NCBI GenBank assembly: GCA_003226295.1
Contig: CP029803.1
Span: forward strand, 166,226 to 230,225
Source: Candidatus Moanibacter tarae
GTDB lineage: Bacteria; Verrucomicrobiota; Verrucomicrobiia; Opitutales; UBA2987
DNA: 64,000 nucleotides
Direction: 5' to 3'
In this document: piece by piece, positions 5,671-43,051 of the stretch
How positions within the stretch are numbered: the stretch's first letter is position 1
Layout: each line of letters opens with the position of its first letter
Made by a program: the position numbers and the translations under genes
The notes under the pieces: model-generated
Database searches by the model: none
Told to the model about the DNA's origin: nothing
The model's input: the letters and a program-made list of their open reading frames with translations, nothing else

Positions 5671-6423
5671 GTGATGAGGAACGTCTATAAGACGAAACGC
5701 TTACTCGAAGAATATCTGCTCTTTCACTACGGAACTGCTGAGGAAATACTTCCCTTTTCGTTTGGGCCCCGGGGAGCCTTGGACTTTGCCACCCGGTCGG
5801 TATCGGAGTGCCTGATCCGCGACTTTTTGCCACCAAGAGCTCGTGCATTGGATTTAGGGTGCGCCGTAGGACGATCGAGTTTCGAGCTAGCGCGTCATTG
5901 CCATGAGGTTGACGCGGTTGACTTTTCTCCACAATTCATCGAAGCGGCCAGGTCTCTACAGGCTCAAGGTAGCTTGAAATTCCAATTCAAAATACATGGG
6001 CAAGTTTACCGGAGGTCCGAAGCCCGCGTCCCGAAAGGAGTCGAACCGAATCGAGTTAATTTCGAGGTGGGCGATGCTCATAACCTATCTGAGGAAATCG
6101 GTGGCTACGATGTTATTCATGCCGCGAATCTGCTTTGCCGCATGGAGCGACCCATGGCGCTGTTAAACCGTCTCCCTTCACTCGTTGTCCCGGGAGGGCA
6201 ACTGATCATTACCAGTCCTTACACTTGGGATGAGGAGTTTACTCCATCGGAAAACTGGGTTGGAGCAACAGTAAATTCTCCGGATCCTTTTGCAGCTCTT
6301 GAAGTGAAGCTCTCAGATGCATTCCGTTTAAAGGGACGCAAGGACCTTCCTTTTCTCATTCGAGAGCACGCTAGAAAATTTCAATGGAGTGTTGCCGAGG
6401 CTACCGTTTGGATTCGGAAATAA
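5671..6423 (+). CDS. Class I SAM-dependent methyltransferase, resembling the stand-alone OvoA C-terminal-domain family (putative 4-mercaptohistidine N1-methyltransferase)
   Basis: 250 aa. The SAM motif I is ALDLGCAVGRSSFELA. The N-terminal YKTKRLLEEYLLFHYG and C-terminal GGQLIITSPYTWDEEFTPSENWVG blocks match my recollection of that family. The family-level call needs an HMM check. Confidence 0.55.
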   Translation: MMRNVYKTKRLLEEYLLFHYGTAEEILPFSFGPRGALDFATRSVSECLIRDFLPPRARALDLGCAVGRSSFELARHCHEVDAVDFSPQFIEAARSLQAQGSLKFQFKIHGQVYRRSEARVPKGVEPNRVNFEVGDAHNLSEEIGGYDVIHAANLLCRMERPMALLNRLPSLVVPGGQLIITSPYTWDEEFTPSENWVGATVNSPDPFAALEVKLSDAFRLKGRKDLPFLIREHARKFQWSVAEATVWIRK

Positions 6424-6532
6424 TATCTGGGATTGATTTTGCCAAAGTTCGATGGCCTGCTTATCTCGAGCTAGATAACATTAAGGCTAAAGATGCCATG
6501 TGCCATACGGAACAGTCTTCAAATAATCTTTG

Positions 6533-7435
6533 TTAGCAAGAAAGTGGATAGCCCATTCGTTGGAAGATCTTGTGAAGATCTTTCCGGTTGAGGCCATTTT
6601 GCCTAAAATAACGTAAACTAAGTGCCTGATCTCTCTTTGCCAAACGTTTACCATAACGGTCTCTTATCAGTTGGCAGTGGTAGAATTGAGGTGGTCGCCA
6701 TCCCAAGGCTCGATAAATAAGAAGTTGGCGGGCAGTAGAAAGGAGGAGGTCTTCCCCTCGGACCACTTCGGTTATTTTCATCGCGTGGTCATCTGCCACT
6801 ACTGCTAGCTCATAGGATGGAAATCCGTCCTTTCGCCAGACAACAAAATCGCCAAAGTCTTTCCCTGCAACAAATGCAACTTTGCCATGTCGGAAATCAA
6901 AAAACTCGATTGTTTGACCATCCGGAACGCGAAATCTCCAATTTTGGTTTCCCGGCTGTTGAAACTTGAGGCCTGTGTTTTCATTGGGCCGGAGAGAGGC
7001 TGGAAAGATGTTTTCTCCTGCTGTACTATGGGGTGCTAGGAGGGATCTCGCTATGTCTTTCCGCGATTGTGGTGAAGGATATATTAGTCCGGTGTTCTTA
7101 AGTTGCTCCCAGGTGGTGTGATAAAAGGAAAGGCGTTGGCTTTGAGTATAGGGGCCATGGATACCGCCCTTTTTAGGGCCTTCTTGCCAGACGAGACCTA
7201 CCCAGGCAAGGTCTTCCAGCATGGCATCAGCAAACTGCGGCTTACACCTATCCTGATCCAGATCTTCGTTACGCAGGATAAGAATTCCCTGTTGCTGCTT
7301 TGCTCGACTCTGAGCGATAAGGAAGGTGTGGGCATGACCAAGATGAAGAAACCCGGTTGGGGTCGGTGCTATTCTACCCCTGTAATGATCTTCGAGTATC
7401 GCTTCTAGTGGTCGCTTGATGTTAGTGCTTGCCAA
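6533..7435 (-). CDS. gluQ: Glutamyl-Q tRNA(Asp) synthetase (truncated GluRS paralog)
   Basis: 300 aa. It has a class I aaRS signature (RIAPTPTGFLHLGH) and LRNEDLD, and it lacks an anticodon-binding domain. The length is typical of GluQRS. Confidence 0.8.
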   Translation of the reverse strand: MASTNIKRPLEAILEDHYRGRIAPTPTGFLHLGHAHTFLIAQSRAKQQQGILILRNEDLDQDRCKPQFADAMLEDLAWVGLVWQEGPKKGGIHGPYTQSQRLSFYHTTWEQLKNTGLIYPSPQSRKDIARSLLAPHSTAGENIFPASLRPNENTGLKFQQPGNQNWRFRVPDGQTIEFFDFRHGKVAFVAGKDFGDFVVWRKDGFPSYELAVVADDHAMKITEVVRGEDLLLSTARQLLIYRALGWRPPQFYHCQLIRDRYGKRLAKRDQALSLRYFRQNGLNRKDLHKIFQRMGYPLSC

Positions 7436-7633
7436 TGTTTATGTAATAGGGACAATTCAGCGGTTAATTCCGGCCGGTCCTCGTCGTTTTGTTAGTTGCA
7501 CGATAGGGGGTACTCCGAGATAAGGAGGCAAGGATTTTGTTGCGGTTTCGAAGGCTATAGCCTCGTGATATGCAATCGTTTTTCGAACTCGGGTACCATC
7601 TTTCATAGACTTGCACTAATGCGTCATGGATAA

Positions 7634-8911
7634 ATGGATGGATTGGATTTAAACGCTATGAGCGAGATTTCTATAGAAGAATTATCAGATACAAGTGGAT
7701 TTGGTGAGCTTGGGTTGAGCGATGCCATCGTTAGAGGTGTATCGCTATGCGGGTATAAAGAACCAACGCAGATACAAAAGCAGGCAATTCCAATTATCAT
7801 GAAAGGAAGAGATCTTTTGGGTGCATCCCATACCGGATCAGGAAAGACGGCGGCATTCGCACTTCCAATCCTTAGTTTATTGCATAGGTCGGGTCCCCTA
7901 CGATGTTTGGTTCTAGAGCCGACCCGTGAACTAGCGCAGCAAGTAGAGAAGGCATTTCTTAAGTACGGACGTACACTCCAACTCAAAGTCACCCTTTTAC
8001 ACGGTGGGGTTGGTTATGGTAAACAAACACAGGATTTGCAAAGGGGTGTAGATATCGTGGTTGCGACTCCAGGACGTCTTCTCGACCATCTTTCGCAAAA
8101 AGCGCTTACTCTTCAGGATATTAGATTTCTGGTTCTTGATGAAGGTGACCGGATGATGGATATGGGGTTTATCCCTGATCTCAGGCGGATTATTGGGCAC
8201 TGCCCACAGAATCGCCAAAGTATGTTGTTTTCGGCAACGCTGGGTCCTGAAATGGAAGGGGTGGCAAACTGGGTGGTTAGCGACCCAGTTCGGATCTCGA
8301 TTGGAGGGGGCAAGGCCCTGGCGAGTTCAGTGCAACATTCCATTTATCCAGTTGATGATCGGCAGAAATTTGATCTACTGCTAGCGCTTTTGGAACAGAT
8401 CGACTATCGTAGTGTAATCATATTTTGCCGTACCAAATTAGGCGCAGATATGATTGCAAGGTGGCTATCAAACACCAAGTACCGGGCTGTTATCCTTCAT
8501 TCAGACCGTAGTCAAAAAGAACGTGATCAGGCACTTGAGGGATTCAAGTCGGGAGCGGTGGAGATTCTTGTTGCTACTGATATTGTAGCGCGAGGTATCG
8601 ATATTATGGATGTGAGCCACGTTATAAACTATGATGTGCCACAAAATCCGGAGGACTACGTGCACCGTATTGGTAGGACTGGGCGGATGGATCGAGAAGG
8701 TGATGCTTTTTCTCTTTTTACAGCGAGCGATCAGGATTTCCTGAAGAACATTGAACGCTTTATAGGACAAACTATCAAAAGGGAAAAAATCGAAAACTTT
8801 CCCTACAACTGGTCTCCCATTCTGGAAGAAAGAACGGTACAACGAAAAAGACGCAATAGGGGCTATGATTCTTCGCCTACTATGAATATTGGCCGCCGTA
8901 AGAGAAGATAA
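7634..8911 (+). CDS. DEAD-box ATP-dependent RNA helicase
   Basis: 425 aa. It has a Q-motif (GYKEPTQIQ), Walker A (SHTGSGKTAAF), a DEGD box (LVLDEGDRM), SAT, and HRIGRTGR with a basic tail. Confidence 0.88.
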   Translation: MDGLDLNAMSEISIEELSDTSGFGELGLSDAIVRGVSLCGYKEPTQIQKQAIPIIMKGRDLLGASHTGSGKTAAFALPILSLLHRSGPLRCLVLEPTRELAQQVEKAFLKYGRTLQLKVTLLHGGVGYGKQTQDLQRGVDIVVATPGRLLDHLSQKALTLQDIRFLVLDEGDRMMDMGFIPDLRRIIGHCPQNRQSMLFSATLGPEMEGVANWVVSDPVRISIGGGKALASSVQHSIYPVDDRQKFDLLLALLEQIDYRSVIIFCRTKLGADMIARWLSNTKYRAVILHSDRSQKERDQALEGFKSGAVEILVATDIVARGIDIMDVSHVINYDVPQNPEDYVHRIGRTGRMDREGDAFSLFTASDQDFLKNIERFIGQTIKREKIENFPYNWSPILEERTVQRKRRNRGYDSSPTMNIGRRKRR

Positions 8912-9111
8912 GTATATTTTAAGGTAAACCCGGAATCACAGATGTAGAGACTCTGCGATGAATCAACGGGCACGAGGACCCTAAATTTGTGATCCAGAAC
9001 ATCGCTGCGTATCGGATAAAGCATCTTTGGTCGGAGGAGATGATGGTGGGTTTCGGGTTGGGAAATGACCAGAAGGGGGATTGTAGGTCCCCTTGGAAGG
9101 ATGCAGGCTTT

Positions 9112-9414
9112 CTAAACCTCCTCGAACTGACTCTCAAAGAGCTTACTCAGCTCATCAAGGATTGGGTTAGGATTGGAGCCGATCAAAGTGAACTTGAGTT
9201 CCGATCCCTGGCCGGCTGCTAACATCATTAGGCCCATGATACTTTTCCCATTGACTAGCTCTTCGTCTTTTTCGACGAAAATTTCGCCAGTGTAGCGATT
9301 AGTCGTTTTCACTATCATGGCGGCAGGGCGAGCGTGAATGCCCATCTTGTTTTTGACTACTAGAGTCTTTTCAGTTTTCGGCTGGTCCGGGGGTTTATTA
9401 TCCAGCTGCGTCAT
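9112..9414 (-). CDS. ptsH: Phosphocarrier protein HPr
   Basis: 100 aa. It has the active-site His block (KNKMGIHARPAA) and the regulatory Ser block (NGKSIMGLMML). Confidence 0.85.
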   Translation of the reverse strand: MTQLDNKPPDQPKTEKTLVVKNKMGIHARPAAMIVKTTNRYTGEIFVEKDEELVNGKSIMGLMMLAAGQGSELKFTLIGSNPNPILDELSKLFESQFEEV

Positions 9415-9569
9415 GGATTTTTAGGATCTGGGAGTAGTCTTTAAATAAAGGGCAATTTATTTAAAATATGAAACGGGACTCGCGGATCAATGGAATTTTC
9501 TTCAATGGAACCTGTCTTTTTATATTAGCGTTAGGTATGCTGGGTGAGACTGTAATTACGGTTTCAGCA

Positions 9570-11312
9570 CTAGGTCAAAGAATGTGAGATAACGTCGTGT
9601 TGGGCGTGCCAAAGATGGGCATAATTGCCGTCGTTATCCAAAAGCTCTTCGTGACCTCCCTGCTCGACAATTCTTCCTGCTTCGAGAACCACAATTTGAT
9701 CGGCTCGTCGAACGGTAGAAAGACGATGGGCGATAATTAGGACTGTTCGGTCCTGCATGAGATTTTCAAGTGCATTTTGAATGTGACGTTCGGTGACGCT
9801 ATCAACGCTTGACGTGGCTTCATCCAGGATAACAAAGGGAGGGTTCTTAAGAAGAACACGGGCAATAGTGAGCCGTTGTTTCTCACCCATGCTCAATCTG
9901 ATGCCCCGTTCTCCAATGGTGGTTTGGATCCCTTGGGGGAGCTTTAAAACGAAATCCAGAGAATGGGCACCTCTAAGGGCCTCGATCAATTCTTCATCGG
10001 TTGCTTCCTTTCGGGCCAGGCGAAGATTTTCCTCAATTGTTCCGTCGAAAAGAAATGGGTCTTGGGCAACAAAACCGATATTTTCCCTGAGTTCGGCGAG
10101 TCGAAAGTGTCTCACATCAGTTCCATTGACAAGAACCTTACCCTGATCGACATCGTAATAGCGGAGAAGGAGATTTGCTACAGTTGACTTCCCTGAGCCA
10201 GTATGTCCGACAAGAGCGGTTACCTGTCCCATTGGGAATTTCAAGTCAAAGTTTTCAATGAGTTGGTCTCTCTGGGGATAGGCAAATCGGACACCGCAGA
10301 GTTCCGCTTGTACAGATCCAGTTGGAAATTTAACGGGAATGGTAGGGTCCTTGACTGAGATCGGATGATCAAGAATCTCGAAAACACGTTCGCCTGATGC
10401 TTTGGCTGTGCTCAACATGTGAGTGAGGGAATTAAGAGTATTCAGAGGTGCGTAGAGCATCGAGCAGAGGTAGAAGAAGGCGACGAATTTGCCAAATGTG
10501 AAGGAAGGATCCATTATCAGAAGGTAGCCGCCCATCCCAATTACCGCGACGGTTCCAAGACTGGCGATAAAGTTAGAGGTAGGGTTGTAAACTGACCAAC
10601 GAAACGCCGCCGTCAGCGTTCGGGATTTTAGAATCTCTGCTTGCTTCCGGAATCGAGCACGTTCGTTTTCTTTGAGAGCAAAAGAATGGATGAGCCGATT
10701 GCCTTGAATATCTTCAACAAGGAGACCGTTCAGAGCGCCGGCTGATTCGCGAACCAGTTGCCAGCTTCTTCGTGTTACAATGGCATGGTTCCAGCCGAGA
10801 AAAAAGAGAATTGGGAGGGGAGCAACGACGAACAGAGCGAGGAGCGGTTCCTTCAGAAATAGCATTGATGAAATGCCGAATACGTAGACGAGGGAAACAG
10901 AGCCTTGTTCTGTTCCATCAAGCAGGGCCCTCTCTACATCCTGCACATCTTCAATGACACGAGAGGCAACTTCTCCGGTCTTTCGCTGATCGTAAAAGGC
11001 AATTGGTAGATCAAGTAGCTTGGCATGCAGATCATGGCGCAGATCGATGAGTACTTTCTGCTCTACAATATTATTAAGCCGAATCCGCAGGGAGTTAAGC
11101 AACTCGCCGAAGAAGTAGCAGCCTGCGACTAGAAGGACTCCGATCCAAATCAAGTCGATCTTTTTGAGGCGTATGATATCATCAATTACCCATTGTACCA
11201 CCTGTGGTGCGCTCAGCGTGAAGAGAGCGCTTCCGATGGCTAATACGAGTGTCAGGATGAAAAGCGTTCGATAGCGGAAGAGGTAATGAGAGACTCGCCA
11301 AATCGTTCTCAT
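9570..11312 (-). CDS. ABC transporter, fused permease/ATP-binding protein (MsbA/exporter type)
   Basis: 580 aa. The N-terminal half has six transmembrane helices. Walker A is GHTGSGKST, the ABC signature is LSMGEKQR, and Walker B is FVILDEATS. Confidence 0.9.
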   Translation of the reverse strand: MRTIWRVSHYLFRYRTLFILTLVLAIGSALFTLSAPQVVQWVIDDIIRLKKIDLIWIGVLLVAGCYFFGELLNSLRIRLNNIVEQKVLIDLRHDLHAKLLDLPIAFYDQRKTGEVASRVIEDVQDVERALLDGTEQGSVSLVYVFGISSMLFLKEPLLALFVVAPLPILFFLGWNHAIVTRRSWQLVRESAGALNGLLVEDIQGNRLIHSFALKENERARFRKQAEILKSRTLTAAFRWSVYNPTSNFIASLGTVAVIGMGGYLLIMDPSFTFGKFVAFFYLCSMLYAPLNTLNSLTHMLSTAKASGERVFEILDHPISVKDPTIPVKFPTGSVQAELCGVRFAYPQRDQLIENFDLKFPMGQVTALVGHTGSGKSTVANLLLRYYDVDQGKVLVNGTDVRHFRLAELRENIGFVAQDPFLFDGTIEENLRLARKEATDEELIEALRGAHSLDFVLKLPQGIQTTIGERGIRLSMGEKQRLTIARVLLKNPPFVILDEATSSVDSVTERHIQNALENLMQDRTVLIIAHRLSTVRRADQIVVLEAGRIVEQGGHEELLDNDGNYAHLWHAQHDVISHSLT

Positions 11313-11432
11313 AGAGGATCAGTAAGGAAAATTTTTGTCTTCTTAATTCCAACGGATCTGTATCGTAACTCGTTATTAATCCTGGAATCCATAGGATCTG
11401 AATTCCAATAGATCTTTATTCTCGGAGAATGC

Positions 11433-12620
11433 CTAGTAAAATCTGATCGAGGGATCGATTTTATGTGCCCAGGCGTTAATTCCGCCCCCGATATTTGAGG
11501 CGAATTTGAATCCTTTGGAGCGTAGGAATTGGGTGGCTTGAAGGCTGCGTGATCCATGATGGCAGTGGATAAAAATAGGGTGATTTGTTGGAAGTGATTC
11601 ATATCTATCAGGAATTTGGCCCAAGGGAATGTTAATACTTCCTTTAATGGAGCAAATCTCTACTTCGTAGGGTTCCCTGACGTCGATGAGGAGACAGTCG
11701 ACTTCAGAATTGAGAATGGAATGTGCTTCTTCCACAGTGATTTCTAGAGGGTGTGTGGCAACATTGCTTCCAGCAGCGTCCTCGGCGTTTGGAACGTTGC
11801 ATTGGAACTCATAGTTTTGGGCTTTCAAGTTAAGAATTGTTGGATTGTCCCCGCATAGGGGGCAATTTGGATCTCTTTTAAGATTTAAGGTTCGAAAATT
11901 CATCGAAAGGGCTTCGGTTACAAGAAGCCGGCCTTTCATAGCTTCTCCGAGACCCAGTAGGTACTTGATGGCTTCCATGGCCTGAATGCTTCCTACTATC
12001 CCACAGAGGGCGCCGAATACTCCAGATTCTTCGCAGTTAGGAACGACTCCTGGGGCCGGCATTTTGGGGAATAGACACCGGTAACAGGGTCCTCCTTCTG
12101 AAGTGTCGAAGATTGAAACTTGTCCCTCGAATTGGAAAATACTGCCATAGACTAACGGTTTCTTAGTGAAGAACGCTGCATCATTGACGAGGTATCGTGT
12201 AGGGAAATTATCACTCCCATCAACCACGAGGTCGTAGTTCATAAAGAGAGAATGAGCATTATCAATAGTTACACCTTCAGAGTGATTTTGAAGCGTGACA
12301 GCCGGATTCAGATCTTTGATTTCAGCTATTGCAGATTCGGTTTTTGAGCTTCCAACTCGAGATGTTTTGTGTAGGATTTGTCTCTGGAGGTTGTGTTCTT
12401 CGATTCTGTCGAAGTCTGCCAGGCCCAAGGTGCCAATCCCAGCGGCTCCAAGATATAGGGCAACGGGACTGCCCAGGCCTCCCATTCCAATCACTAAAAT
12501 CTTAGCGTGGGACAAAATTTCCTGACTTTTAAGACCGACATTAGGAAGAATGATTTGTCTGCTATAACGAGCGATTTCTTCCGGGCTGAGTGGGTTTCTT
12601 TTTTCTCGCTTTTGATTCAT
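11433..12620 (-). CDS. MoeB/ThiF-family adenylyltransferase with a C-terminal rhodanese domain (MoeZ-type sulfur-carrier E1)
   Basis: 395 aa. It has RYSRQI, GMGGLGSPVALYLGAAGIG, two CxxC pairs (CYRC, CPLC), and a rhodanese active-site loop (HCHHGSRS). Confidence 0.85.
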   Translation of the reverse strand: MNQKREKRNPLSPEEIARYSRQIILPNVGLKSQEILSHAKILVIGMGGLGSPVALYLGAAGIGTLGLADFDRIEEHNLQRQILHKTSRVGSSKTESAIAEIKDLNPAVTLQNHSEGVTIDNAHSLFMNYDLVVDGSDNFPTRYLVNDAAFFTKKPLVYGSIFQFEGQVSIFDTSEGGPCYRCLFPKMPAPGVVPNCEESGVFGALCGIVGSIQAMEAIKYLLGLGEAMKGRLLVTEALSMNFRTLNLKRDPNCPLCGDNPTILNLKAQNYEFQCNVPNAEDAAGSNVATHPLEITVEEAHSILNSEVDCLLIDVREPYEVEICSIKGSINIPLGQIPDRYESLPTNHPIFIHCHHGSRSLQATQFLRSKGFKFASNIGGGINAWAHKIDPSIRFY

Positions 12621-33727: not shown

Positions 33728-35692
33728 CTAGGGTACGGCAGTCTTCTGTTGTTGGCGAAGCACTCTTCGGTCTCCTTGTCGCAGGGTGATGCCTTCATGG
33801 TCTAATTTCTCCAGGATAGGTAGGGCAATTCGTCGACTGGTCCCGAGGGTGAAGCGAATCTCGCTTACAGTCGAGGGACCATTTAAACGGATGAGATCTA
33901 TGATTTTATCTTTTGCAAGGTTGAAGGAAGACTTTGACATAACGATTTTGTCTGAGACTTCGACAACTTCATTGGATTGGATAAGAAAAGTAAGGGTTTC
34001 AAGATAGTGTGAATCAGAGGCCAACTCTTTCCGCGATGGAGGTTCCAGAGGTTTGTTATTGAGGGAGCTGCGTATTTTATCAGCTAGTGGTCTAAGGCGT
34101 TCGGGAAGTGCAATTTTGTGATTTACTCTCATGAGAAATACACCCTGTTTCTGAAATCCCGATCGAAGCAGTCTTTCCAGCAAAGCTTCAAATATATCTT
34201 TATGGCGATTCTCAATACGAATAGTTCGTCGGAGCTTACTGAGCGTGAGACCGCCACGTTCCGGGTTTGTACTGTGTTCTTGGTCAATAGCCTTGGAGGC
34301 GGTGTGGAATAATTTGTCCCACCATTTCCTTTCAACAAGTAGGGGCCCTAGGAGTATAGCGGCTCCGGATTCTGCTAGTCCTCGAATTGTTTCGGCGATC
34401 TCATCAGCACTGAAGATGGACTGGAGCAAGACTTCGGTGGGCGAGATAGCTAGGTCGCGCAGAAGCTGAGAGCTGATCCAGTGATCTAATTTCCCGAGTG
34501 ACTTGGCACGTATTTCGAGGAAATTTTTATGAGCGCAATCTTGGAATAGGTAGGGACGGGATTGAGGGTAAAGAACAATTCCTCCTCCAACGGTAGTTTT
34601 CCCTGGCCAGTCTCGAATAATAAATCGATCACCGGCAAAAAGAAAAAGCGGGGACTCTAGGCGAAGTTGGGCAAGTGTACTTTGCCCTGGGGAGAGATCC
34701 TGTTTCTCAAAAAATCGCATCCTTGCGGGTACATTTTTGCTTCCGTGGTGGATTCGGACGCGGCTTCCATCAGTGAGATGACGGATTCCCCTTGGTAGCG
34801 ATCTCGCGAAATCAGGTGATCGCTCGATGAGGGCATCGGCTGTTTGGGAGGGACTCCCTAGTTCTGGTAAGGTTACTACATCACCTTTTTGGATCTTTGT
34901 TGGACCTTGTGAATCAGGCGTGGAGACGTGTGCCAGGCAGGTGGCAGTTCGCATGCTAGGCCGACTCTCTTCAAGATGTTGGTTTACAGATTGTATATTG
35001 CGAATTCGGGATTCGATGCCTGAGGGTTGGATGAGGATTTGCTGGCCACGAATCAAAGTTCCACCGGTTAGGGTTCCCGTGGCGACTGTCCCAATGCCCG
35101 GAATTGAAAAGACGCGATCGACGGGCAGGCGTGGCTTTCCAATATTGCGTGGGAGAGGGGTGTCTTTAAGGACCCTTCCCAAGGCAATCTTTAAGTCCTC
35201 GATCCCCTCTCCGGTTACTGATGATGTTCTTACAATGGGAGCCTTAGCTAAGCGGCTCGTGTTTAGTCTCTTTCTAATCTCATTGATTTTTAAAGTGTTA
35301 GTTTTATCCGCAAGGTCTGACTTGGATAGTGCCACAACGCCACGTGAGATTCCAAGATAAGAAAGGATCTCGAGATGCTCTTCCGTTTGAGTCATCCATC
35401 CGTCGTCAGCTGCGATAACGAGAAGACAGAGATCGATCGATCCAACGCCAGCGACCATATTCTTGACAAAATCTTCGTGTCCGGGAACGTCGACAATTCC
35501 AAGATTAAAGATGACAGAAGGGTCTTCAGGAGACCTGATATCGAGAAAGGCAAAACCGAGATCAATCGTAAGCCCTCTTTTCTTTTCTTCAGGAAGGCGA
35601 TCTGGATCCACACCCGTTAATGCCTTTACCAAGGAGCTTTTTCCGTGGTCAACATGACCGGCGGTTGCAAGGATTAAATTATGATTAGTCAC
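33728..35692 (-). CDS. selB: Selenocysteine-specific translation elongation factor SelB
   Basis: 654 aa. It has GTPase motifs (AGHVDHGKSSL, DVPGHEDF, SKSD) followed by long winged-helix C-terminal domains. It lies 27 nt downstream of selA. Confidence 0.9.
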   Translation of the reverse strand: MTNHNLILATAGHVDHGKSSLVKALTGVDPDRLPEEKKRGLTIDLGFAFLDIRSPEDPSVIFNLGIVDVPGHEDFVKNMVAGVGSIDLCLLVIAADDGWMTQTEEHLEILSYLGISRGVVALSKSDLADKTNTLKINEIRKRLNTSRLAKAPIVRTSSVTGEGIEDLKIALGRVLKDTPLPRNIGKPRLPVDRVFSIPGIGTVATGTLTGGTLIRGQQILIQPSGIESRIRNIQSVNQHLEESRPSMRTATCLAHVSTPDSQGPTKIQKGDVVTLPELGSPSQTADALIERSPDFARSLPRGIRHLTDGSRVRIHHGSKNVPARMRFFEKQDLSPGQSTLAQLRLESPLFLFAGDRFIIRDWPGKTTVGGGIVLYPQSRPYLFQDCAHKNFLEIRAKSLGKLDHWISSQLLRDLAISPTEVLLQSIFSADEIAETIRGLAESGAAILLGPLLVERKWWDKLFHTASKAIDQEHSTNPERGGLTLSKLRRTIRIENRHKDIFEALLERLLRSGFQKQGVFLMRVNHKIALPERLRPLADKIRSSLNNKPLEPPSRKELASDSHYLETLTFLIQSNEVVEVSDKIVMSKSSFNLAKDKIIDLIRLNGPSTVSEIRFTLGTSRRIALPILEKLDHEGITLRQGDRRVLRQQQKTAVP

Positions 35693-35719
35693 AGGAATTT
35701 GCCGGACTTAATCAGAAAT

Positions 35720-37114
35720 TTACTTTGAATTTTCAGTCCAGGACGGTTTAGATTTCAGTGCTGATCGAATGGCGCAGGAAAGTGACTCGTCTTGACTTTC
35801 AAAGACTGTACGTAAGTCGAGCCGAAGTTGCTGGTTTGAGATATATCCTATGACAGGAGGGGTTCCCTTCCGTAGTTCAGAGGTGAGTAGTTCGAGGTTT
35901 TTTGCTGTCGACGCTAAATCAATGGTCACCGATGGTATACTTGATTTCGGTAGGGCGCCTCCTCCGATTTGCGATTCTCCATCGTTAATGTTAATTTTGA
36001 TCGGCAGGTCTTTTAGGCTCCGAGCGATTTTTTCCCCACGTTTCCGAAGCTTTGCAACGGGATCATTAAGCATTTGGAAAACCGGTATTTCTTTATTAGA
36101 CCGTTGGCTGAGGTAAAGTTCGGCGGTGGACTGCAGGGCTGCGAGGATGAGTTTGTCGGAGCGTAAGGCTCGGAAAAAAGGTTCCTTTTTGAGGGCATCG
36201 ACAATCACTTTTTTCCCTGCTATTATGCCAGCCTGGGGACCACCCATCAATTTGTCACCACTGAAGCAGACCAAATCAACACCCTGGCGAAGCACTTCGG
36301 CAGGAGTAGGCTCGTGTTCCAGAGATGTGGTCTGAGCGGTATCGACTAGGGCACCGCTACCAAGGTCTTCGATCATTGGTAGTCGATGGGTATTGGCCAA
36401 TAGTTTGATATCCTCAGATGTCGGAGATTTGACGAAACCCTCCATAGCAAAATTGCTTCGATGCACCTTGAGTATGAGGGCTGTATCTCGGTTGATCGCC
36501 CTTTCATAATCTTTCACGGTAGTCCGGTTGGTAGTTCCGACTTCACGGATGTCGGCACCGCTTGACTCAAGGATCTCCGGTATTCGGAAGCCGCCTCCAA
36601 TTTGGATGAGCTCTCCCCTTGAAATGATGACGCTTTTCTGGTCCCCAGATGTAAAATGTCGGATGACTAAAACAAGAGCGGCAGCACAGTTGTTAACTAC
36701 GATTGTGCTCTCGGATTGGCACAGAATAGAGAGGCACAGCTCGAGATATTGACCTCGATTTCCTCGATTTCCGGTGGGCAGATCCATTTCAAGATTGCTA
36801 TATGTTTGTCCGATTTCACTCATATACTGAACGGCTTGGGGTGCGAGGGGGGCACGCCCAAGATTGGTATGAACAATGACTCCGGTTCCGTTTACAGTAG
36901 GCTTTATCCTGCTCAGCTCGATAGCTTTGAGTTCCTTTCCGATCTGAGTGACGATCAAATCGAAGGGAGGAATCTTTCTCTTTTTTCGAATAATATTCAA
37001 ATACTCCCGAACAACGGAGAGAACGATTTCGTGCGGAAGCTCTCTGAAAGCAAGCGCCTGGATGATTTTATCGACGGAAGGTATGGTGCGCCGGTCGCTA
37101 TCGGGGTTAGTCAT
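35720..37114 (-). CDS. selA: L-seryl-tRNA(Sec) selenium transferase SelA
   Basis: 464 aa. It has IPSVDKII, NNCAAAL and the PLP-lysine block FSGDKLMGGPQAGII. Confidence 0.9.
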   Translation of the reverse strand: MTNPDSDRRTIPSVDKIIQALAFRELPHEIVLSVVREYLNIIRKKRKIPPFDLIVTQIGKELKAIELSRIKPTVNGTGVIVHTNLGRAPLAPQAVQYMSEIGQTYSNLEMDLPTGNRGNRGQYLELCLSILCQSESTIVVNNCAAALVLVIRHFTSGDQKSVIISRGELIQIGGGFRIPEILESSGADIREVGTTNRTTVKDYERAINRDTALILKVHRSNFAMEGFVKSPTSEDIKLLANTHRLPMIEDLGSGALVDTAQTTSLEHEPTPAEVLRQGVDLVCFSGDKLMGGPQAGIIAGKKVIVDALKKEPFFRALRSDKLILAALQSTAELYLSQRSNKEIPVFQMLNDPVAKLRKRGEKIARSLKDLPIKININDGESQIGGGALPKSSIPSVTIDLASTAKNLELLTSELRKGTPPVIGYISNQQLRLDLRTVFESQDESLSCAIRSALKSKPSWTENSK

Positions 37115-37182
37115 CTTGTCTATCCTCGGTTGGGAGAATGGGTCTTTCTTTTAATGAGAAATAGTATCTGAGCGAATTTGAA

Positions 37183-39492
37183 TTGAAAAAGGGATATCGA
37201 CAAGCGAACTTTCCAGCAGTGAAGGCGGAAGGTCAGCGCATACTGAAGGAACTCGTTCTTGTCGGCGGGGGCCATTCTCATATCGCTATTCTGAAAGAGT
37301 TTGGAATGCGGCCGGTTTTGGGTTTGCGAATCACGCTTATATCGGAATATGGCGGAACGCCGTATTCAGGGATGCTTCCGGGCCTAATCGCGGGGCACTA
37401 CAATTACGAAGAAGTACATATTGACCTAGTCCGGCTCTGTCGGTTAGCAGGAGCTCAGTTTTATCGGACCCGAGTCGAGGGACTGGATTTGGGAGGGAAG
37501 CGAGTGCTTTGTGAAGGGAGACCTCCAGTTCGATTTGATTTAATTTCAATTAACAATGGATCGACACCGAGAACTAAAGGAATTGCTGGGGCGGCCAAGT
37601 ACTCCATTCCAGTGAAGCCGATTATGCAGTTTCTCCGTGGTTGGGATAGAATCTTGGAAGCGGCGATAAAAAGGGAAGGCGATTCATATCGGGTTACGGT
37701 GATAGGTGGGGGAGCCGGGGGTGTCGAAGTAACGCTTGCCACTCAGTTTTGCCTCTATAATGAACTTAAAAAACGCAATATTACGAGCTCTCAGATAGAA
37801 TTTCATTTGGTTACAGAAAGCGATGTTCTCCTTCCGACTCATAATCCGAGAGTGCAGGAAAAATACACCCGCATTCTGGATGATCGGAAAGTGGTAGTGC
37901 ACCTCCAACATCGGGTAGTGAAGGTTGAAGCCGACGCTTTATTTTGCGAACCGGGTGCAATTATCCTTAGCGACGCAATCATTCTGGCGACCGATGGTGC
38001 CCCATCGGAATGGCTGAGAGAATCGGGATTAACAACCGATCACCAAGGCTTCATTGTCGTAGATGAATGTTTGCGGTCGCCCTCACATCCCTTTGTCTTT
38101 GCTGCAGGAGATGCTGCCTCGGTGAGGGAGCATCCGCGCCCTAAGTCAGGAGTCTTTGCAGTTCGACAAGGGCCTCCCTTAGGCGAAAACATCCGTTTGG
38201 CTCTGGCTGATCTGCCTTCTAAGCCTTTTGTTCCCCAGAGACATTTTCTGAGCTTAATTAGTACAGGGGATCAGTACGCGGTTGCTTCACGAGGACGATG
38301 GGCATTGGAAGGGAAAATAATCTGGAAGATTAAAGATTGGATTGATCGCCGCTGGATGAAGCAGTATCGAGAGTTGCCTGCCATGTCGGAGGATGAGGGG
38401 GATTCTCGAATTGCGGAAAGGCTTATCCCCAATTCGGATACCCTTCCAGAAGAGGGAAAGGAAACGATTCGCTGTGGAGGATGCGGCTCGAAAGTTGGGA
38501 GCGTTGTATTGAATAAAGTTCTTAACCGGGTGGATATTATTGAGCGAAAGGACATTTTGCTGGGCCTCAAGAGTTCCGATGATGCAGCTGCCTTGAAAGT
38601 CCCGGAAGGAATGATACAGGTTCAATCAGTGGACAGTTTCCCGGTTTTCTTAAATGACCCCTACATGTTCGGTAAGATTGCTGCCAACCATTGTCTGGGC
38701 GATCTCTTTGCAATGGGAGCTGAACCTCAGTCTGCGCAGGTATTGGTTACTGTGGATCCAGGTTCTGATTCAGCGATGGAAGAGCAGCTTTTTCAGGTAA
38801 TGAGTGGAGCGATTTCTCTGTTGGAGGAACATAGGGTCGCGCTTATTGGAGGACACACTTCAGAAGGGTCGCCATTGGGTATAGGGTTGGTTGTAAACGG
38901 TCTGGCGGAAGAGGGAAGTCTCTTGCGCAAGGGAGGAATGCGGCCAGGCGATCAGCTCATCATGACAAAACCTCTGGGAACCGGGACGATCTTTGCTGCT
39001 GATATGCGGGCAAGAGCAAAGAGTAGTTGGATTGAGGAAGCGGTTCGATCAATGGTGCGTTCTAATGGGCCGGCGATCGATTGTTTCAAGAGGCATGGGG
39101 CAAGTGCTTCTTCTGATGTTACCGGTTTCGGTTTGGTTGGGCATTTGATTGAGATGCTGCATGCTTCCGGAACAGGAGCTAAAATGAATCTTAAAGCAGT
39201 AACATTTTTTTCTGGGGCGGTGGAAACAGCGAAGGCCGGGATACTGAGCACTTTGCAGCCCCAAAATCGAAAGCTGGAAGCATCTTTGAAATTTAAAGGG
39301 GAAAGAGATGAACGTTATGAGCTGCTCTTCGATCCACAGACCTCAGGAGGATTGCTTGCTAGTGTTCCATTGAAGCATGCAGAGGCTTGCCTAGGTGATC
39401 TCAAAAGTGTAGGTTATTTAGATGCTGCTGTGATTGGAGAGGTAGTTGTACGGGAGAAAGAGGAGCCTTGTCTTGAAATACGGGGGTTATAA
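37183..39492 (+). CDS. selD: Selenide,water dikinase SelD fused to an N-terminal FAD-dependent pyridine nucleotide-disulfide oxidoreductase domain
   Basis: 769 aa. The N-terminal ~400 aa has LVGGGHSHI and VIGGGAGGVE Rossmann motifs. The C-terminal half has the SelD active-site loop RCGGCGSKVG (Cys, not Sec) and PurM-like folds (DDAA..., GGHT). The ORF-track start is TTG. Confidence 0.9.
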   Translation: MKKGYRQANFPAVKAEGQRILKELVLVGGGHSHIAILKEFGMRPVLGLRITLISEYGGTPYSGMLPGLIAGHYNYEEVHIDLVRLCRLAGAQFYRTRVEGLDLGGKRVLCEGRPPVRFDLISINNGSTPRTKGIAGAAKYSIPVKPIMQFLRGWDRILEAAIKREGDSYRVTVIGGGAGGVEVTLATQFCLYNELKKRNITSSQIEFHLVTESDVLLPTHNPRVQEKYTRILDDRKVVVHLQHRVVKVEADALFCEPGAIILSDAIILATDGAPSEWLRESGLTTDHQGFIVVDECLRSPSHPFVFAAGDAASVREHPRPKSGVFAVRQGPPLGENIRLALADLPSKPFVPQRHFLSLISTGDQYAVASRGRWALEGKIIWKIKDWIDRRWMKQYRELPAMSEDEGDSRIAERLIPNSDTLPEEGKETIRCGGCGSKVGSVVLNKVLNRVDIIERKDILLGLKSSDDAAALKVPEGMIQVQSVDSFPVFLNDPYMFGKIAANHCLGDLFAMGAEPQSAQVLVTVDPGSDSAMEEQLFQVMSGAISLLEEHRVALIGGHTSEGSPLGIGLVVNGLAEEGSLLRKGGMRPGDQLIMTKPLGTGTIFAADMRARAKSSWIEEAVRSMVRSNGPAIDCFKRHGASASSDVTGFGLVGHLIEMLHASGTGAKMNLKAVTFFSGAVETAKAGILSTLQPQNRKLEASLKFKGERDERYELLFDPQTSGGLLASVPLKHAEACLGDLKSVGYLDAAVIGEVVVREKEEPCLEIRGL

Positions 39493-39549
39493 AGTAGCAT
39501 CCAATTTATAGGCCGTTTCTTGTCGCAGTTAAATTCGTTCTGTTGGAAG

Positions 39550-39580
39550 AGGTCCCTCTCGACCCAGGGGCGGTTTTGTT
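39550..39580 (+). terminator. Candidate intrinsic terminator of selD
   Basis: The stem gtccct/aggggc (6 bp including a G-U pair) has an 8-nt loop and is followed by ggttttgtttc. Confidence 0.35.
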
Positions 39581-39707
39581 TCCCGCGGATTACCCCACGG
39601 GCTCTAGATGTCTCTTGATCGATTTGGGGTAAATCAATCCTACATTTCTTACTCTCAATCCACAGGATACGAACTAGTGTTTAATCTCGATTAGATCAAG
39701 CGGAACA

Positions 39708-39804
39708 TGGCGGAGAGGGTAAGAATCGAACTTACCTCGACCTTCGGAGAAGGCCGACAACGGTTTTGAAGACCGCGGGGACCACCAGGCACCCTTCACT
39801 CTCC
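39708..39804 (-). tRNA. selC: tRNA-Sec (anticodon UCA), with encoded CCA
   Basis: The reverse complement reads GGAGAGUGAAGGGUGCCUGGUGGUCCCCGCGGUCUUCAAAACCGUUGUCGGCCUUCUCCGAAGGUCGAGGUAAGUUCGAUUCUUACCCUCUCCGCCA. The anticodon loop is CU-UCA-AA on a CGGU/ACCG stem. The long variable arm has a 9-bp stem (UCGGCCUUC/GAAGGUCGA). The extended D-stem has a 4-nt loop, the T-loop is UUCGAUU, the discriminator is G, and the 3' end is CCA. Confidence 0.9.
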
Positions 39805-39841
39805 GAATAATCCGAAGATGGGTCGTATCTTCGGATTATTC
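39805..39841 (-). other. Perfect 14-bp hairpin bridging the selenoprotein stop codon and the tRNA-Sec 5' end
   Basis: On the + strand, gaataatccgaaga (39805-39818) and tcttcggattattc (39828-39841) are exact reverse complements with a 9-nt loop. In the minus-strand RNA, the stem begins with the GA of the UGA stop and ends at the base before tRNA G1. No U-tract follows on the minus strand. On the + strand it is followed by agagttttt. Confidence 0.85.
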
Positions 39842-40070
39842 AGAGTTTTTCGCGGATTGATTTAATAATCGAATCGGGCTCAGGAAAGCAGCCAGTTGCC
39901 AGTTTTGAGTAAATCTTCTCACCGTTCAAACTGACTTCGAATGCGCCCCCCCTGGAAGGGACGAGCCGAAGGCCGATTATCTGTTGCTTGAACTGTAGGA
40001 TTCTTTCCGTCAGACTGACGGCTTGTAGTTCATAGCCTCAAGCGGCGCAGTATTCGATTTCAATTTCCAT
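39840..40070 (-). CDS. SelW-like (Rdx family) selenoprotein; the in-frame UGA at 40040..40038 is read as selenocysteine
   Basis: My translation is MEIEIEYCAA-U-GYELQAVSLTERILQFKQQIIGLRLVPSRGGAFEVSLNGEKIYSKLATGCFPEPDSIIKSIREKL*. Three family hallmarks are all present: the IEYC-x-x-U redox motif, GGAFEV, and G-x-FPEP. It is missed by the ORF track because codon 11 is TGA. It lies adjacent to selC and selD. Confidence 0.85.
39990..40037 (-). promoter_or_regulatory. Candidate bacterial SECIS element
   Basis: The mRNA downstream of the UGA is GGCUAUGAACUACAAG-CCGUCA-GUC-UGACGG. A perfect 6-bp stem (40007..40021) starts 16 nt after the UGA. Its apical loop starts with G. It is flanked by possible GAACU/AGUUC outer pairing. 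Confidence 0.5.
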
Positions 40071-40403
40071 CCTGTTTCAAAGGATGTGAAGGAACAGAGG
40101 CTGAGTCAAGATTTGGAGAGAATGTGATTCCAAACGAATTGGGGATAAGAAACAGAAGTTTTCCCATCTGTATCTTTGCAAGATACCTGGAAATCACAAT
40201 ATTGCCTCTTCTCTTTAATTCCAATGGTTTAAAATCCAGGTGAAACTCAATTTTTATGGTACGAGTACAAGACCGATAAAGGCGATCGATAGATGACAGA
40301 CTAAAAGAAAGCGACATAATCTTGGCCATCGAGCTGAGTTAGAGCCTTCAAAACTATATATTGTAGGGCTATTAGGTAGGTAAACTTAAACTCTAATAAG
40401 ATT

Positions 40404-40559: not shown

Positions 40560-41471
40560 ATGAAAGACTTTCAGTTTTGCAGTCCGAGGTCCCTGGACGA
40601 AGCAGTGGGTTTGATGTCGGAAGAAGGTGTCAAAGCACGAGGTTTTGCCGGGGGTACCGATGTCTTGGTTCAATTGCGAGCGAAACGCTTTGAGATTGAC
40701 CGACTGGTTGATATGAAACAGGTCCCGGAATTGAATGACCTTCAATTGGAGTCCACCAAGGGTCTGCGGATAGGTGCATCTGTCCCGTGTCACCAGGTTT
40801 ACGAAGACAAGAGCATTTGTTCGGTTTACCCCGGCCTTATCGATTCGATTGCGATTATTGGAGGAATCCAAATCCAGGGTCGGGCCAGTATAGGAGGAAA
40901 TCTTTGCAATGCATCACCGAGCGCAGACTCCATTCCTACTCTAATCGTTTATGGTGCCCAATGTGAGATTGCTGGAAAAAACGGCATGCGTTCGATCGGA
41001 GTTGAGGACTTTTGTGTCGGGCCAGGGAAGTCGGTTTTGGATGAAGGCGAAATATTAGTGGCGGTTAATATCCCGACCCCGGCGCCAAATTCTGGTGCCC
41101 ATTACCTCCGGTTTATTCCTAGAAATGAAATGGATATAGCGGTAGTCGGAGCTGGAGCAGCGGTCGAGCTAGAAGAAGATTTGCAAACAATTAAAAAAGC
41201 GAGAATCGCTTTTGGTGCGGTTGCTCCTACCCCGCTTTTGGCGAGTGAAGCGGGTGATCTCTTATCTGGGAAAGAAGCCGGAGAAGAGTCATATGAAGCA
41301 GCAGCTTCAGTGGCACAGAGTATTGTTAGCCCTATCACCGATATGAGAGGGACTAAGGAGTTTCGCATTCACCTGACGGGGGTGTTGACGAAGAGAGCGC
41401 TTAGGGGCGCGGTTGCCCGAGCTAGGGGTGAGTTTGTACCCAATGCCGTAGAGGAGGCCAAAGCCTCGTAA
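40560..41471 (+). CDS. Molybdenum hydroxylase family FAD-binding (medium, CoxM/XdhB-like) subunit
   Basis: 303 aa. It has FAGGTDVLVQLR, ASIGGNLCNASPSADS and MRGTKEFR, typical of the FAD_binding_5/CO_deh_flav_C architecture. Confidence 0.85.
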   Translation: MKDFQFCSPRSLDEAVGLMSEEGVKARGFAGGTDVLVQLRAKRFEIDRLVDMKQVPELNDLQLESTKGLRIGASVPCHQVYEDKSICSVYPGLIDSIAIIGGIQIQGRASIGGNLCNASPSADSIPTLIVYGAQCEIAGKNGMRSIGVEDFCVGPGKSVLDEGEILVAVNIPTPAPNSGAHYLRFIPRNEMDIAVVGAGAAVELEEDLQTIKKARIAFGAVAPTPLLASEAGDLLSGKEAGEESYEAAASVAQSIVSPITDMRGTKEFRIHLTGVLTKRALRGAVARARGEFVPNAVEEAKAS

Positions 41472-41511
41472 TAGGGAACAGGGAAAAGGTAATCTCAGCG
41501 GGAGAAGAATT

Positions 41512-42015
41512 ATGGCACGAAAGACACATGTTCAAACGAAAATAAATAGGGAGCAGACGGAGTTCCTTTGTGAAGCAAGACAGAGTCTCCTTGAAGTTTT
41601 ACGAGAGGAACTCGGTCTTACGGGTACTAAAGAAGGTTGTAATGACGGGAATTGTGGAGCCTGTTCAGTGACCTTGGATGGCGTGTTGGTGGATTCGTGC
41701 CTTGTCTTGGCGACAGAAGTTGAAGGACGTGAAGTCGGGACTGTAGAAGGTATTGCTACCGCAGACGGTCTCCATCCATTGCAGCAGGCTTTTCTCGAGG
41801 AGGCCGGATTACAGTGTGGAATTTGCACTCCAGGATTTTTAGTTGCAAGCAAAGCGCTACTGGAGAGAAATCCGAATCCAACCGAACATCAGGTAAGGCA
41901 TTGGCTGGCTGGAAATTTATGTCGTTGCACGGGCTACGACAAGATCGTCAGATCCGTCCTCAAAGCAGCAGCAGTGACTGGAGACAAGGGAGCCGCGAAG
42001 GACGGCACCAACTGA
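41512..42015 (+). CDS. Molybdenum hydroxylase family [2Fe-2S] (small, CoxS-like) subunit
   Basis: 167 aa. It has two cluster motifs, CNDGNCGACSV and QCGICTPGF...CRCTGY. Confidence 0.9.
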   Translation: MARKTHVQTKINREQTEFLCEARQSLLEVLREELGLTGTKEGCNDGNCGACSVTLDGVLVDSCLVLATEVEGREVGTVEGIATADGLHPLQQAFLEEAGLQCGICTPGFLVASKALLERNPNPTEHQVRHWLAGNLCRCTGYDKIVRSVLKAAAVTGDKGAAKDGTN

Positions 42016-42048
42016 TTGGTTGCTCAATTGTTTTCCCCGGGAGAGAGT

Positions 42049-42312
42049 ATGCCCAGGGTTTTTATACCCCCTCTTCTCCAGCGTTTCACCTCAGGTGAGG
42101 ATTTCGTTGAGATCGAAGGTTCTACGGTTAGAGAGGTCGTCCAGAATCTTGAAGTGGAGTACCCAGGGATTCGGGATAGAATCTGTCAGGAAGACCGAAT
42201 AAATCCTGGCATCGCAGTTGCGGTTGATGGACAGATTTCCAACGAAGGGATGCGGCGAAAGGTTGGACCGGACAGCGAATTACAGTTTATACCTGCTATC
42301 GGCGGGGGCTAG
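42049..42312 (+). CDS. MoaD/ThiS-family ubiquitin-like sulfur-carrier protein (CysO-like), C-terminal GG
   Basis: The sequence runs MPRVFIPPLLQRFTSGEDFVEIEGSTVREVV...ELQFIPAIGGG. The ATG at 42049 is preceded by GGGAGAGAG. The ORF-track start is an upstream in-frame TTG at 42016. Confidence 0.75.
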   Translation: MPRVFIPPLLQRFTSGEDFVEIEGSTVREVVQNLEVEYPGIRDRICQEDRINPGIAVAVDGQISNEGMRRKVGPDSELQFIPAIGGG

Positions 42313-42526
42313 GGATTTAACGGTCTCGATATTTTAAGATTCTCGGTATGCCTTTCCGAAGGGTGACTGTATTTATTTTGACTGAATTTTCTCCGAAAGG
42401 ATTTGAAGGTGGAATCACACTAATTCGAGTTGTGTGAATACAATGATTAATTACGCTTGACCAACACTCATATTAAGATGAGGTCTGGGCTTTATTGAAA
42501 TTATTAAAGGAATAAACTTAAGAATT

Positions 42527-43051
42527 ATGAAACTGAAGCAGGATTGCTTTCTATCAGCAACGATAAGGACCTTTCAATTCCGGTGCCATTTGTTTCCGAC
42601 CTTCTACGCAAGGTCGGTGATTAGTTGCTTTTTGCTATTTGTGGGAGCATTGGTTGGAGCGGACGGGGCGGATATCAAGATAATTGAGATCAATGCTGAC
42701 GATACGATGCGGTATGACGTGACAGCGTTCGAAGTTAACGCAGGCCAGAATGTGCGTATCGTGTTTAAAAATGTTGGCAAGCTTCCCAAGGTTGCGATGG
42801 GACACAATCTCATAGTCCTCAAGGAGGGAATAGAGATGGCTGAGTTTGCTCAGGTTGCAATGACTGCGAAGGAATCGGAGTTTATACCAGAGCTAAAGAG
42901 GGGAGAGATCATCGCCCACACAAAATTACTTGGTCCTGGCGAGATCGATACAATAGAGTTCATAGCTCCGGCCAAACTTGGAAATTACACTTACTTCTGT
43001 TCCTTCCCAGGACATTGGGTTCTTATGAAGGGTGTGATGACGGTGAAATAG
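42527..43051 (+). CDS. Azurin-like blue copper protein (cupredoxin)
   Basis: The Cu ligand pattern is MGHN...FCSFPGHWVLMKG (His, Cys-x4-His-x3-Met). A hydrophobic signal-like N-terminus is present. Confidence 0.8.
   Translation: MKLKQDCFLSATIRTFQFRCHLFPTFYARSVISCFLLFVGALVGADGADIKIIEINADDTMRYDVTAFEVNAGQNVRIVFKNVGKLPKVAMGHNLIVLKEGIEMAEFAQVAMTAKESEFIPELKRGEIIAHTKLLGPGEIDTIEFIAPAKLGNYTYFCSFPGHWVLMKGVMTVK

Follow-up and report, generated by a model that had tools for sequence, protein, structure and literature searches.

A stretch of DNA of 64,000 nucleotides, referred to here as the window, very probably carries a genuine selenocysteine (Sec)-decoding gene for a SelW-like protein of the Rdx family at 40070..39840 on the minus strand, as judged from the sequence and its homologues. 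The gene comprises 76 codons, including the predicted Sec codon 11, and a TGA stop codon at 39842..39840. When the minus strand is translated from the ATG at 40070, the frame runs through MEIEIEYCAA, an in-frame TGA at 40040..40038, which is predicted to be decoded as Sec, and 65 further sense codons (GYELQAVSLTERILQFKQQIIGLRLVPSRGGAFEVSLNGEKIYSKLATGCFPEPDSIIKSIREKL, GYELQ...IREKL) to the second TGA. Another in-frame TGA lies two codons 5' of the ATG and closes the frame, which leaves this ATG as the sole possible start; a Shine-Dalgarno-like AGGA directly abuts it, which is an atypical spacing. An earlier note on this DNA had proposed a hidden gene with an in-frame UGA at this place, and the frame and both TGAs proved to be exactly as claimed. 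The CxxU, GGAFEV, and G-x-FPEP motifs that it described were all located in the recoded product, as the redox motif C8-A-A-U11, RGGAFEV (residues 40-46), and GCFPEP (residues 60-65), respectively. Tryptic cleavage of this product would yield the Sec peptide MEIEIEYCAAUGYELQAVSLTER, and the peptides encoded 3' of the UGA include ILQFK, GGAFEVSLNGEK, and LATGCFPEPDSIIK. The source organism is uncultured. The DNA of the window was found in a JGI marine metagenome, where it is part of a contig of 1.6 Mb, as well as in ENA and Tara Oceans assemblies, and the locus, including the TGA, is base-for-base the same in two independently assembled public contigs.

The UGA was written as Cys for profile searches with the 76-aa product. 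The product matched the Pfam family Rdx (PF10262) over positions 1-74 of the 74-position profile with an E-value of 3.7e-21 and a score of 75.6 bits against a cut-off of 22.6, and the NCBIfam family TIGR02174 (SelT/SelW/SelH, CXXU_selWTH) with 66.6 bits against a cut-off of 34.2. The profile search proposed in the earlier note thus gave scores above the cut-off in both families, and the end-to-end Rdx match of the recoded product far exceeds chance. With the NCBIfam equivalog NF041051 (SelTWH_Campy), the score of 66.3 bits was below the cut-off of 88, and the gene is therefore not assigned to the Campylobacter-type subtype while still being a member of the family. In a search of the PDB, the product matched seven Rdx-fold entries at E-values of 1e-9 to 3e-7, namely 2LJK (human MIEN1), 2FA8 (Agrobacterium Atu0228), 2P0G (a Vibrio 'selenoprotein W-related protein'), 2OBK, 2OKA (2OBK and 2OKA both from Pseudomonas), 3DEX, and 2OJL. 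By homology to these solved structures, the product is predicted to adopt a thioredoxin-like fold. In the alignments, C8-A-A-U11 is placed on CEPC of MIEN1 and CTQC of Atu0228. The bacterial Cys-containing Rdx proteins among these entries show homology to residues 2-75 of the product (E 2e-9 to 3e-7) and share its GG-F-E and FP motifs, and in the alignment their CxxC falls on its CxxU. They differ in that they carry Cys instead of Sec, are approximately 105 aa long with extra termini, and do not need a SECIS element. Mammalian SELENOW and its Cys paralogue MIEN1/C17orf37 (E 1.1e-9 for MIEN1) belong to the same Rdx family, with CxxU or CxxC at the same position.

Only seven homologues of the product were found in a large protein database, all of them C-terminal fragments of 47-57 aa, some of which carry the name 'selenoprotein W-related protein'. 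Such fragments are the expected pattern because gene callers cut the gene at the in-frame UGA. For five of the fragments, corresponding to six loci (L001-L006), the surrounding DNA was inspected. In every locus there is an upstream ATG, the aligned codon is TGA, and the frame stays open after it, with (I/V)-x-I-E-Y-C-x-x kept before the TGA. A scan of GTDB with one genome per species, using an alignment of SelW-like sequences as the query, added 80 further loci for a total of 86. The aligned codon is TGA in 85 of the 86 loci, which span at least six phyla, and Cys in the remaining one (L046, Thermomicrobiales); the motif C-x-x-(U/C) is invariant across all of them. The earlier note had also proposed a comparison with orthologues, where a lack of conservation downstream of the TGA would have spoken against the gene. 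Instead, both flanks are conserved among the homologues, with 10-13 residues before the TGA, including I-E-Y-C, and approximately 65 after it, which make up the full domain. The closest relatives of the product in the GTDB scan are from Verrucomicrobiota MAGs with 61-66% identity, and none was found above 66%; Verrucomicrobiota also provide the closest relatives of the SelA and SelB encoded in the window. The other loci are from Chthoniobacterales, Chloroflexota, Actinomycetota, Planctomycetota, Methylomirabilota, Acidobacteriota, and the cultured Tenuibacillus multivorans.

These comparisons bear on two other explanations of the TGA. The first is that the gene is a pseudogene, or that an error in sequencing or assembly has turned a Cys codon (TGY) of an ordinary CxxC Rdx protein into TGA. 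TGA is indeed one base from TGC and TGT, and Cys forms of the family exist, as seen for L046 and the PDB entries. However, an error or a decayed gene is at odds with the identical sequence in independent assemblies, with a TGA at exactly the same codon in nearly all homologues across several phyla, with the full Sec machinery adjoining the gene, and with a constraint on synonymous sites in a downstream hairpin (see below) that a Cys gene would not need, and we assign it practically no weight. The second is that UGA is read as something other than Sec, either under a reassigned code (Trp or Gly) or by near-cognate suppression. Reassignment of UGA is known in some uncultured bacterial lineages. 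In the window, however, TGA is a normal stop codon, which ends nine of the 40 longest frames as well as the SelW-like gene itself; moreover, the UGA is aligned with the second Cys of CxxC in the solved homologues, and a tRNA-Sec with the anticodon TCA is encoded 35 nt away, leaving a very small chance for a non-Sec reading. Since TGA otherwise acts as a normal stop and the independent assemblies are identical, a pseudogene, a sequencing error, and a code reassignment are all very unlikely, and decoding of this UGA as Sec is the explanation that we favor.

Decoding as Sec would require a SECIS element, and a candidate apical hairpin, CCGUCA-GUC-UGACGG, was located at 40021..40007 on the minus strand from folding and comparative data, within the interval 39980..40045 that the earlier note had named for a SECIS search. 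The stem starts 16 nt past the UGA, the loop is GUC, and the loop G is 23 nt past the UGA. This agrees with the description of bacterial SECIS elements as stem-loops directly 3' of the UGA whose small apical loop includes a G (PMC1088965). An alignment of 74 distinct segments, each comprising the 54 nt from the TGA onward, required no gaps. The conserved hairpin has 5-6 bp, with the five core pairs paired in at least 98% of the 74 distinct sequences, and RNAalifold independently predicted the helix, pairing columns 21-25 with columns 29-33. Among the 74 sequences, pair 21-33 is CG in 70 and UA in two, pair 23-31 is UG in 46, UA in 21, and CG in seven, pair 24-30 is CG in 72 and GC in one, and pair 25-29 is AU in 51 and GU in 22. 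The loop G (G26, column 26) is invariant, and the hairpin is at a fixed distance from the UGA. In a shuffle control, the observed value was reached in 0 of 500 shuffles for four of five measures, and pairing, which is 83.6% in the actual register, was 22-50% when the register was slid. The core helix shows few two-sided compensatory changes (three cells in two pairs), and the variation is mostly one-sided among G-U, A-U, and G-C.

Because the hairpin lies inside the coding sequence, where its codons encode A-V-S/G-L-T/A, we used the entropy at third codon positions to separate constraint on the RNA from constraint on the protein. The entropy is 0.10-0.34 bits in the five hairpin codons and 1.35-1.88 bits in the flanking codons. 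Codon use in the hairpin is nearly fixed, with AGT for Ser in 53/53 cases, GTC for Val in 69/70, and GCC for Ala in 72/76, whereas outside the hairpin a conserved Pro freely uses four codons and a conserved Leu six. The freeze of synonymous sites in the hairpin relative to its flanks indicates selection on the RNA, as for bacterial SECIS elements. In single-sequence folding, the element is thermodynamically unremarkable, with z = -0.9 for a 46-nt segment and z = -2.2 for a 71-nt segment whose fold contains the hairpin, and because this thermodynamic support is weak, the case for a SECIS element is built on the comparative data. It should be noted that in a permissive Rfam scan of 39650..40150 the tRNA-Sec was the only real match, and no curated SECIS family matched the hairpin.

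The arrangement is similar to the SECIS-SelB systems of E. coli fdhF and Moorella fdhA, in which the hairpin likewise directly follows the UGA and carries G-U in its apical loop, and as in those systems a winged-helix SelB is encoded nearby. The loop context in the SelW-like loci, (A/G)GU(C/U)U, presumably resembles the GGUCU loop of the E. coli and Moorella elements. The stem of the minimal E. coli SECIS starts 11 nt after the UGA, whereas the stem in the window starts at 16 nt, shows no evident bulged U, and has a conserved part of only 5-6 bp. In eukaryotes, decoding of SELENOW depends on a 3'-UTR SECIS element, SBP2, and eEFSec; in contrast, the element in the window is inside the coding sequence and would be read by SelB. 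As a separate observation, L046, the Thermomicrobiales locus with CSGC, retains five of the six hairpin pairs and the GUC loop (2015-2062) after its TGC codon, suggesting that this hairpin is a fossil SECIS left by a recent Sec-to-Cys conversion.

The earlier note placed the gene in a complete Sec-decoding locus, and indeed all four Sec-decoding genes, selA, selB, selC, and selD, are found within 33728..39804, no more than 6.4 kb from the SelW-like gene. The tRNA-Sec gene selC (39708..39804, minus strand, anticodon TCA) was identified with ARAGORN and with Rfam RF01852 (63.4 bits, gathering score 47), and it is situated 35 nt 3' of the SelW-like stop codon on the same strand. Also on the minus strand are selA (35720..37114), encoding selenocysteine synthase (PF03841 SelA, E 9e-126), and selB (33728..35692), encoding the Sec-specific elongation factor with the domains GTP_EFTU, Beta-barrel_SelB, and SelB-wing_3; its C-terminal winged-helix domain is of the SECIS-binding type. 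In between, on the plus strand, an Ndh-SelD fusion is encoded at 37183..39492, in which an Ndh-like N-terminal pyridine-nucleotide-disulfide oxidoreductase domain is joined to the AIRS and AIRS_C domains (Pfam) of selenophosphate synthetase. The fusion has 769 aa, or 757 aa in the public gene calls, which start it at 37219, and is of the Cys type with the CxxC active site C431-G-G-C434. Ndh-SelD fusions of this type with CxxC are reported to account for approximately 40% of the SelDs of the Cys type from marine samples (PMC2398784). A perfect 15-bp inverted repeat (39805..39841; fold -19 kcal/mol) takes up the entire gap from the SelW-like stop codon to the tRNA-Sec, extending from one base past the stop to the first base of the tRNA. 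The repeat is terminator-like on the plus strand only, where a T-run is found at 39842-39851, with no U-run after it on the minus strand, and it may serve as an mRNA 3' stabilizer, a processing site, or a bidirectional or partial terminator.

From the frame, the family match by profile, the conservation of the TGA and its flanks, the constrained hairpin, and the four Sec-decoding genes, we infer the following route to the product. At codon 11, the ribosome would not read the UGA as a stop, because the hairpin at 40021..40007 with its GUC loop would act in the mRNA as the SECIS element and recruit SelB-GTP with Sec-tRNA(Sec), so that Sec is inserted. The tRNA transcribed from selC would be charged with Ser, which SelA would convert using selenophosphate supplied by Ndh-SelD. 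The second TGA, for which there is no SECIS element, would then terminate translation. The predicted product is a SelW-like protein of 76 residues with a thioredoxin fold and a Cys8-x-x-Sec11 redox center, most likely a small thiol-dependent oxidoreductase cycling between the selenol/thiol and the selenenylsulfide of Cys8 and Sec11. A selenenylsulfide mechanism has been inferred for the SelW-like family from its CxxU motif (PMC1088965).

As the earlier note had pointed out, the ORF list misses the SelW-like gene and has only an 89-aa ORF (ORF89, 40060..40329, minus strand) that overlaps its start by 11 nt. The same holds for the public gene calls on the 1.6 Mb marine contig, in which the real gene is absent and this orphan ORF is called instead. 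That choice by public gene callers, together with a codon-usage score of 0.13 bits per codon, which lies among the scores of real small genes in the window, would fit a reading in which translation ends at the first TGA, the 65 codons after it are untranslated, and ORF89 is the real gene. However, ORF89 matches no Pfam family, tblastn showed no counterpart of it in any of the 86 related loci, and a search of 1.84 billion representative proteins returned only a self-match, while the 65 codons hold most of the full-length Rdx match and are conserved as protein across phyla. The two frames are not mutually exclusive either, given that their overlap is only 11 nt. Termination at the first TGA has scarcely any chance of being correct. 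We regard ORF89 as an orphan and most likely a spurious call, in line with the opinion of the earlier note, or possibly as a lineage-specific small gene. The SelW-like gene thus illustrates the systematic loss of selenoprotein genes under stop-bounded ORF calling, and the omission or truncation of SelW-like genes by annotation is a documented problem (PMC1088965, PMC2398784, PMC4607533).

The gene is a fresh member of the established family of bacterial SelW-like selenoproteins (PF10262, formerly PF05169; TIGR02174), a correct find and an unsurprising one for a marine bacterium. It shares with the family a length of approximately 75-80 residues, an N-terminal CxxU, and a UGA followed by a SECIS element in the coding region with a G in a small apical loop, and the family consists mostly of Sec forms of marine origin that are often missed or truncated by annotation (PMC4607533). 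There is no essential difference between the window copy and this family; the copy is at most 66% identical to homologues in reference genomes and is placed directly upstream of selC. SelW-like proteins were catalogued in the selenoproteomes of the Sargasso Sea and the GOS expedition (PMC1088965, PMC2398784, PMC1794560), and the SelW-like CxxU proteins, described in 2005-2008, are the most abundant marine bacterial selenoprotein family (PMC1088965, PMC2398784), with 427 Sec forms and 56 Cys forms in the GOS data (PMC2398784). Very few Cys homologues are present in Sec-decoding organisms (PMC1794560). In a 2026 review, the bacterial SELENOW-like family is entered as 'predicted with high confidence' and its function as unknown (PMC13188914). 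Apart from adding one more SelW-like selenoprotein to this abundant marine family, the analysis revealed that its SECIS hairpin is strikingly uniform across phyla, and the hairpin could serve as a search model.

Other features around the gene were also inspected. Divergent from it, four genes occupy 40560-43051 on the plus strand, encoding a CoxM-like FAD-binding subunit (40560-41471), a CoxS-like 2Fe-2S subunit (41512-42015), a ThiS/MoaD-like protein (42049-42312), and a cupredoxin (42527-43051). The ORFs listed up to 46000 include no molybdopterin large subunit, and the FAD-binding and 2Fe-2S subunits (40560-42015) have no counterpart in the loci related to the SelW-like gene. A loose scan for other frames that are interrupted by a TGA and have Cys, Ser, or Thr close to it gave 101 candidates, most of which are off-frame; the nine most plausible ones had no significant Pfam match, and no second selenoprotein gene was evident among them. 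A 98-aa ORF in frame after the TGA of the 2Fe-2S gene (42013) was considered as a read-through product and rejected, as it is the separately called ThiS/MoaD-like gene.

The placement of the SelW-like gene next to selC recurs in its relatives. Among the 80 loci used for gene order (L007-L086), the order SelW-like gene, tRNA-Sec, selD, selA, selB on one strand was found in approximately 40 genomes of Verrucomicrobiota/Chthoniobacterales from several orders (for example, L007 at 6001-12141, L025, L028, L044, and L071-L073). In the window, Ndh-SelD is inverted compared with the Verrucomicrobiota relatives, whose selD, selA, and selB follow one another on one strand. In 47 loci, the SelW-like stop codon is followed by tRNA-Sec, and the spacers between the two range from 12-17 nt (L037, L060, and L071) to more than 100 nt with terminator-like hairpins. 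A spacer of 12-17 nt leaves no room for a promoter, implying that the mRNA and the tRNA are co-transcribed in those three loci, and the SelW-like gene in the window is presumably co-transcribed with selC as well. In Tenuibacillus, the SelW-like gene is placed among selB, selD, and selA. Within 6 kb of the SelW-like gene, Chloroflexota, Actinomycetota, and Planctomycetota have no sel gene. We found no description of the Verrucomicrobiota gene order, or of a SelW-like gene directly upstream of selC, in the literature searched.

What the linkage means is a separate question from how the UGA is decoded. The gene may be intact and decodable and yet be a mere passenger beside the Sec machinery, with no functional tie to selenium metabolism, because a selenoprotein gene must travel with selA, selB, and selC to keep the trait selected after horizontal transfer. 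This reading concerns only the meaning of the linkage and is compatible with Sec decoding. It is consistent with the proposal that Sec decoding is transferred successfully when selA, selB, and selC sit in one cluster with one or more selenoprotein genes (PMC1794560), and also with the distribution of the linkage, which was found for Verrucomicrobiota and Tenuibacillus and is absent within 6 kb in the three phyla named above. On the other hand, a one-strand order kept in some 40 genomes of several Verrucomicrobiota orders, with spacers to selC as short as 12-17 nt, is tighter than co-transfer needs. On balance, we consider it probable that the gene is such a passenger, and the simplest reading of the linkage is that the Sec trait is inherited together with a selenoprotein gene, as proposed previously (PMC1794560).

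Alternatively, the SelW-like ORF could be an integral first cistron of a Sec-decoding operon, which we regard as rather unlikely. In one version, the SelW-like protein may be a dedicated redox or selenium-handling partner of SelD; in the other, the ORF may be a translational sensor, in which passage through the UGA to the stop codon beside the 15-bp hairpin couples the availability of Sec-tRNA(Sec) to how selC and the sel genes downstream of it are processed or transcribed. The physical tie to the Sec-decoding genes, which is present in Verrucomicrobiota, one Bacillota species, and this window, offers a concrete hypothesis, a role in selenium metabolism or co-regulation with it, for a family that lacks an assigned function. 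As a last observation on these clusters, the stand-alone SelD is itself a selenoprotein (…SSCAG-TGA-ASKLS…) in nine of the loci (L007, L008, L018, L019, L028, L041, L044, L071, and L083) and has Cys at that position in four others (L025, L030, L035, and L073). Clusters with a Sec-type SelD beside the SelW-like gene therefore hold two Sec genes, and the SelD of the window is of the Cys type.
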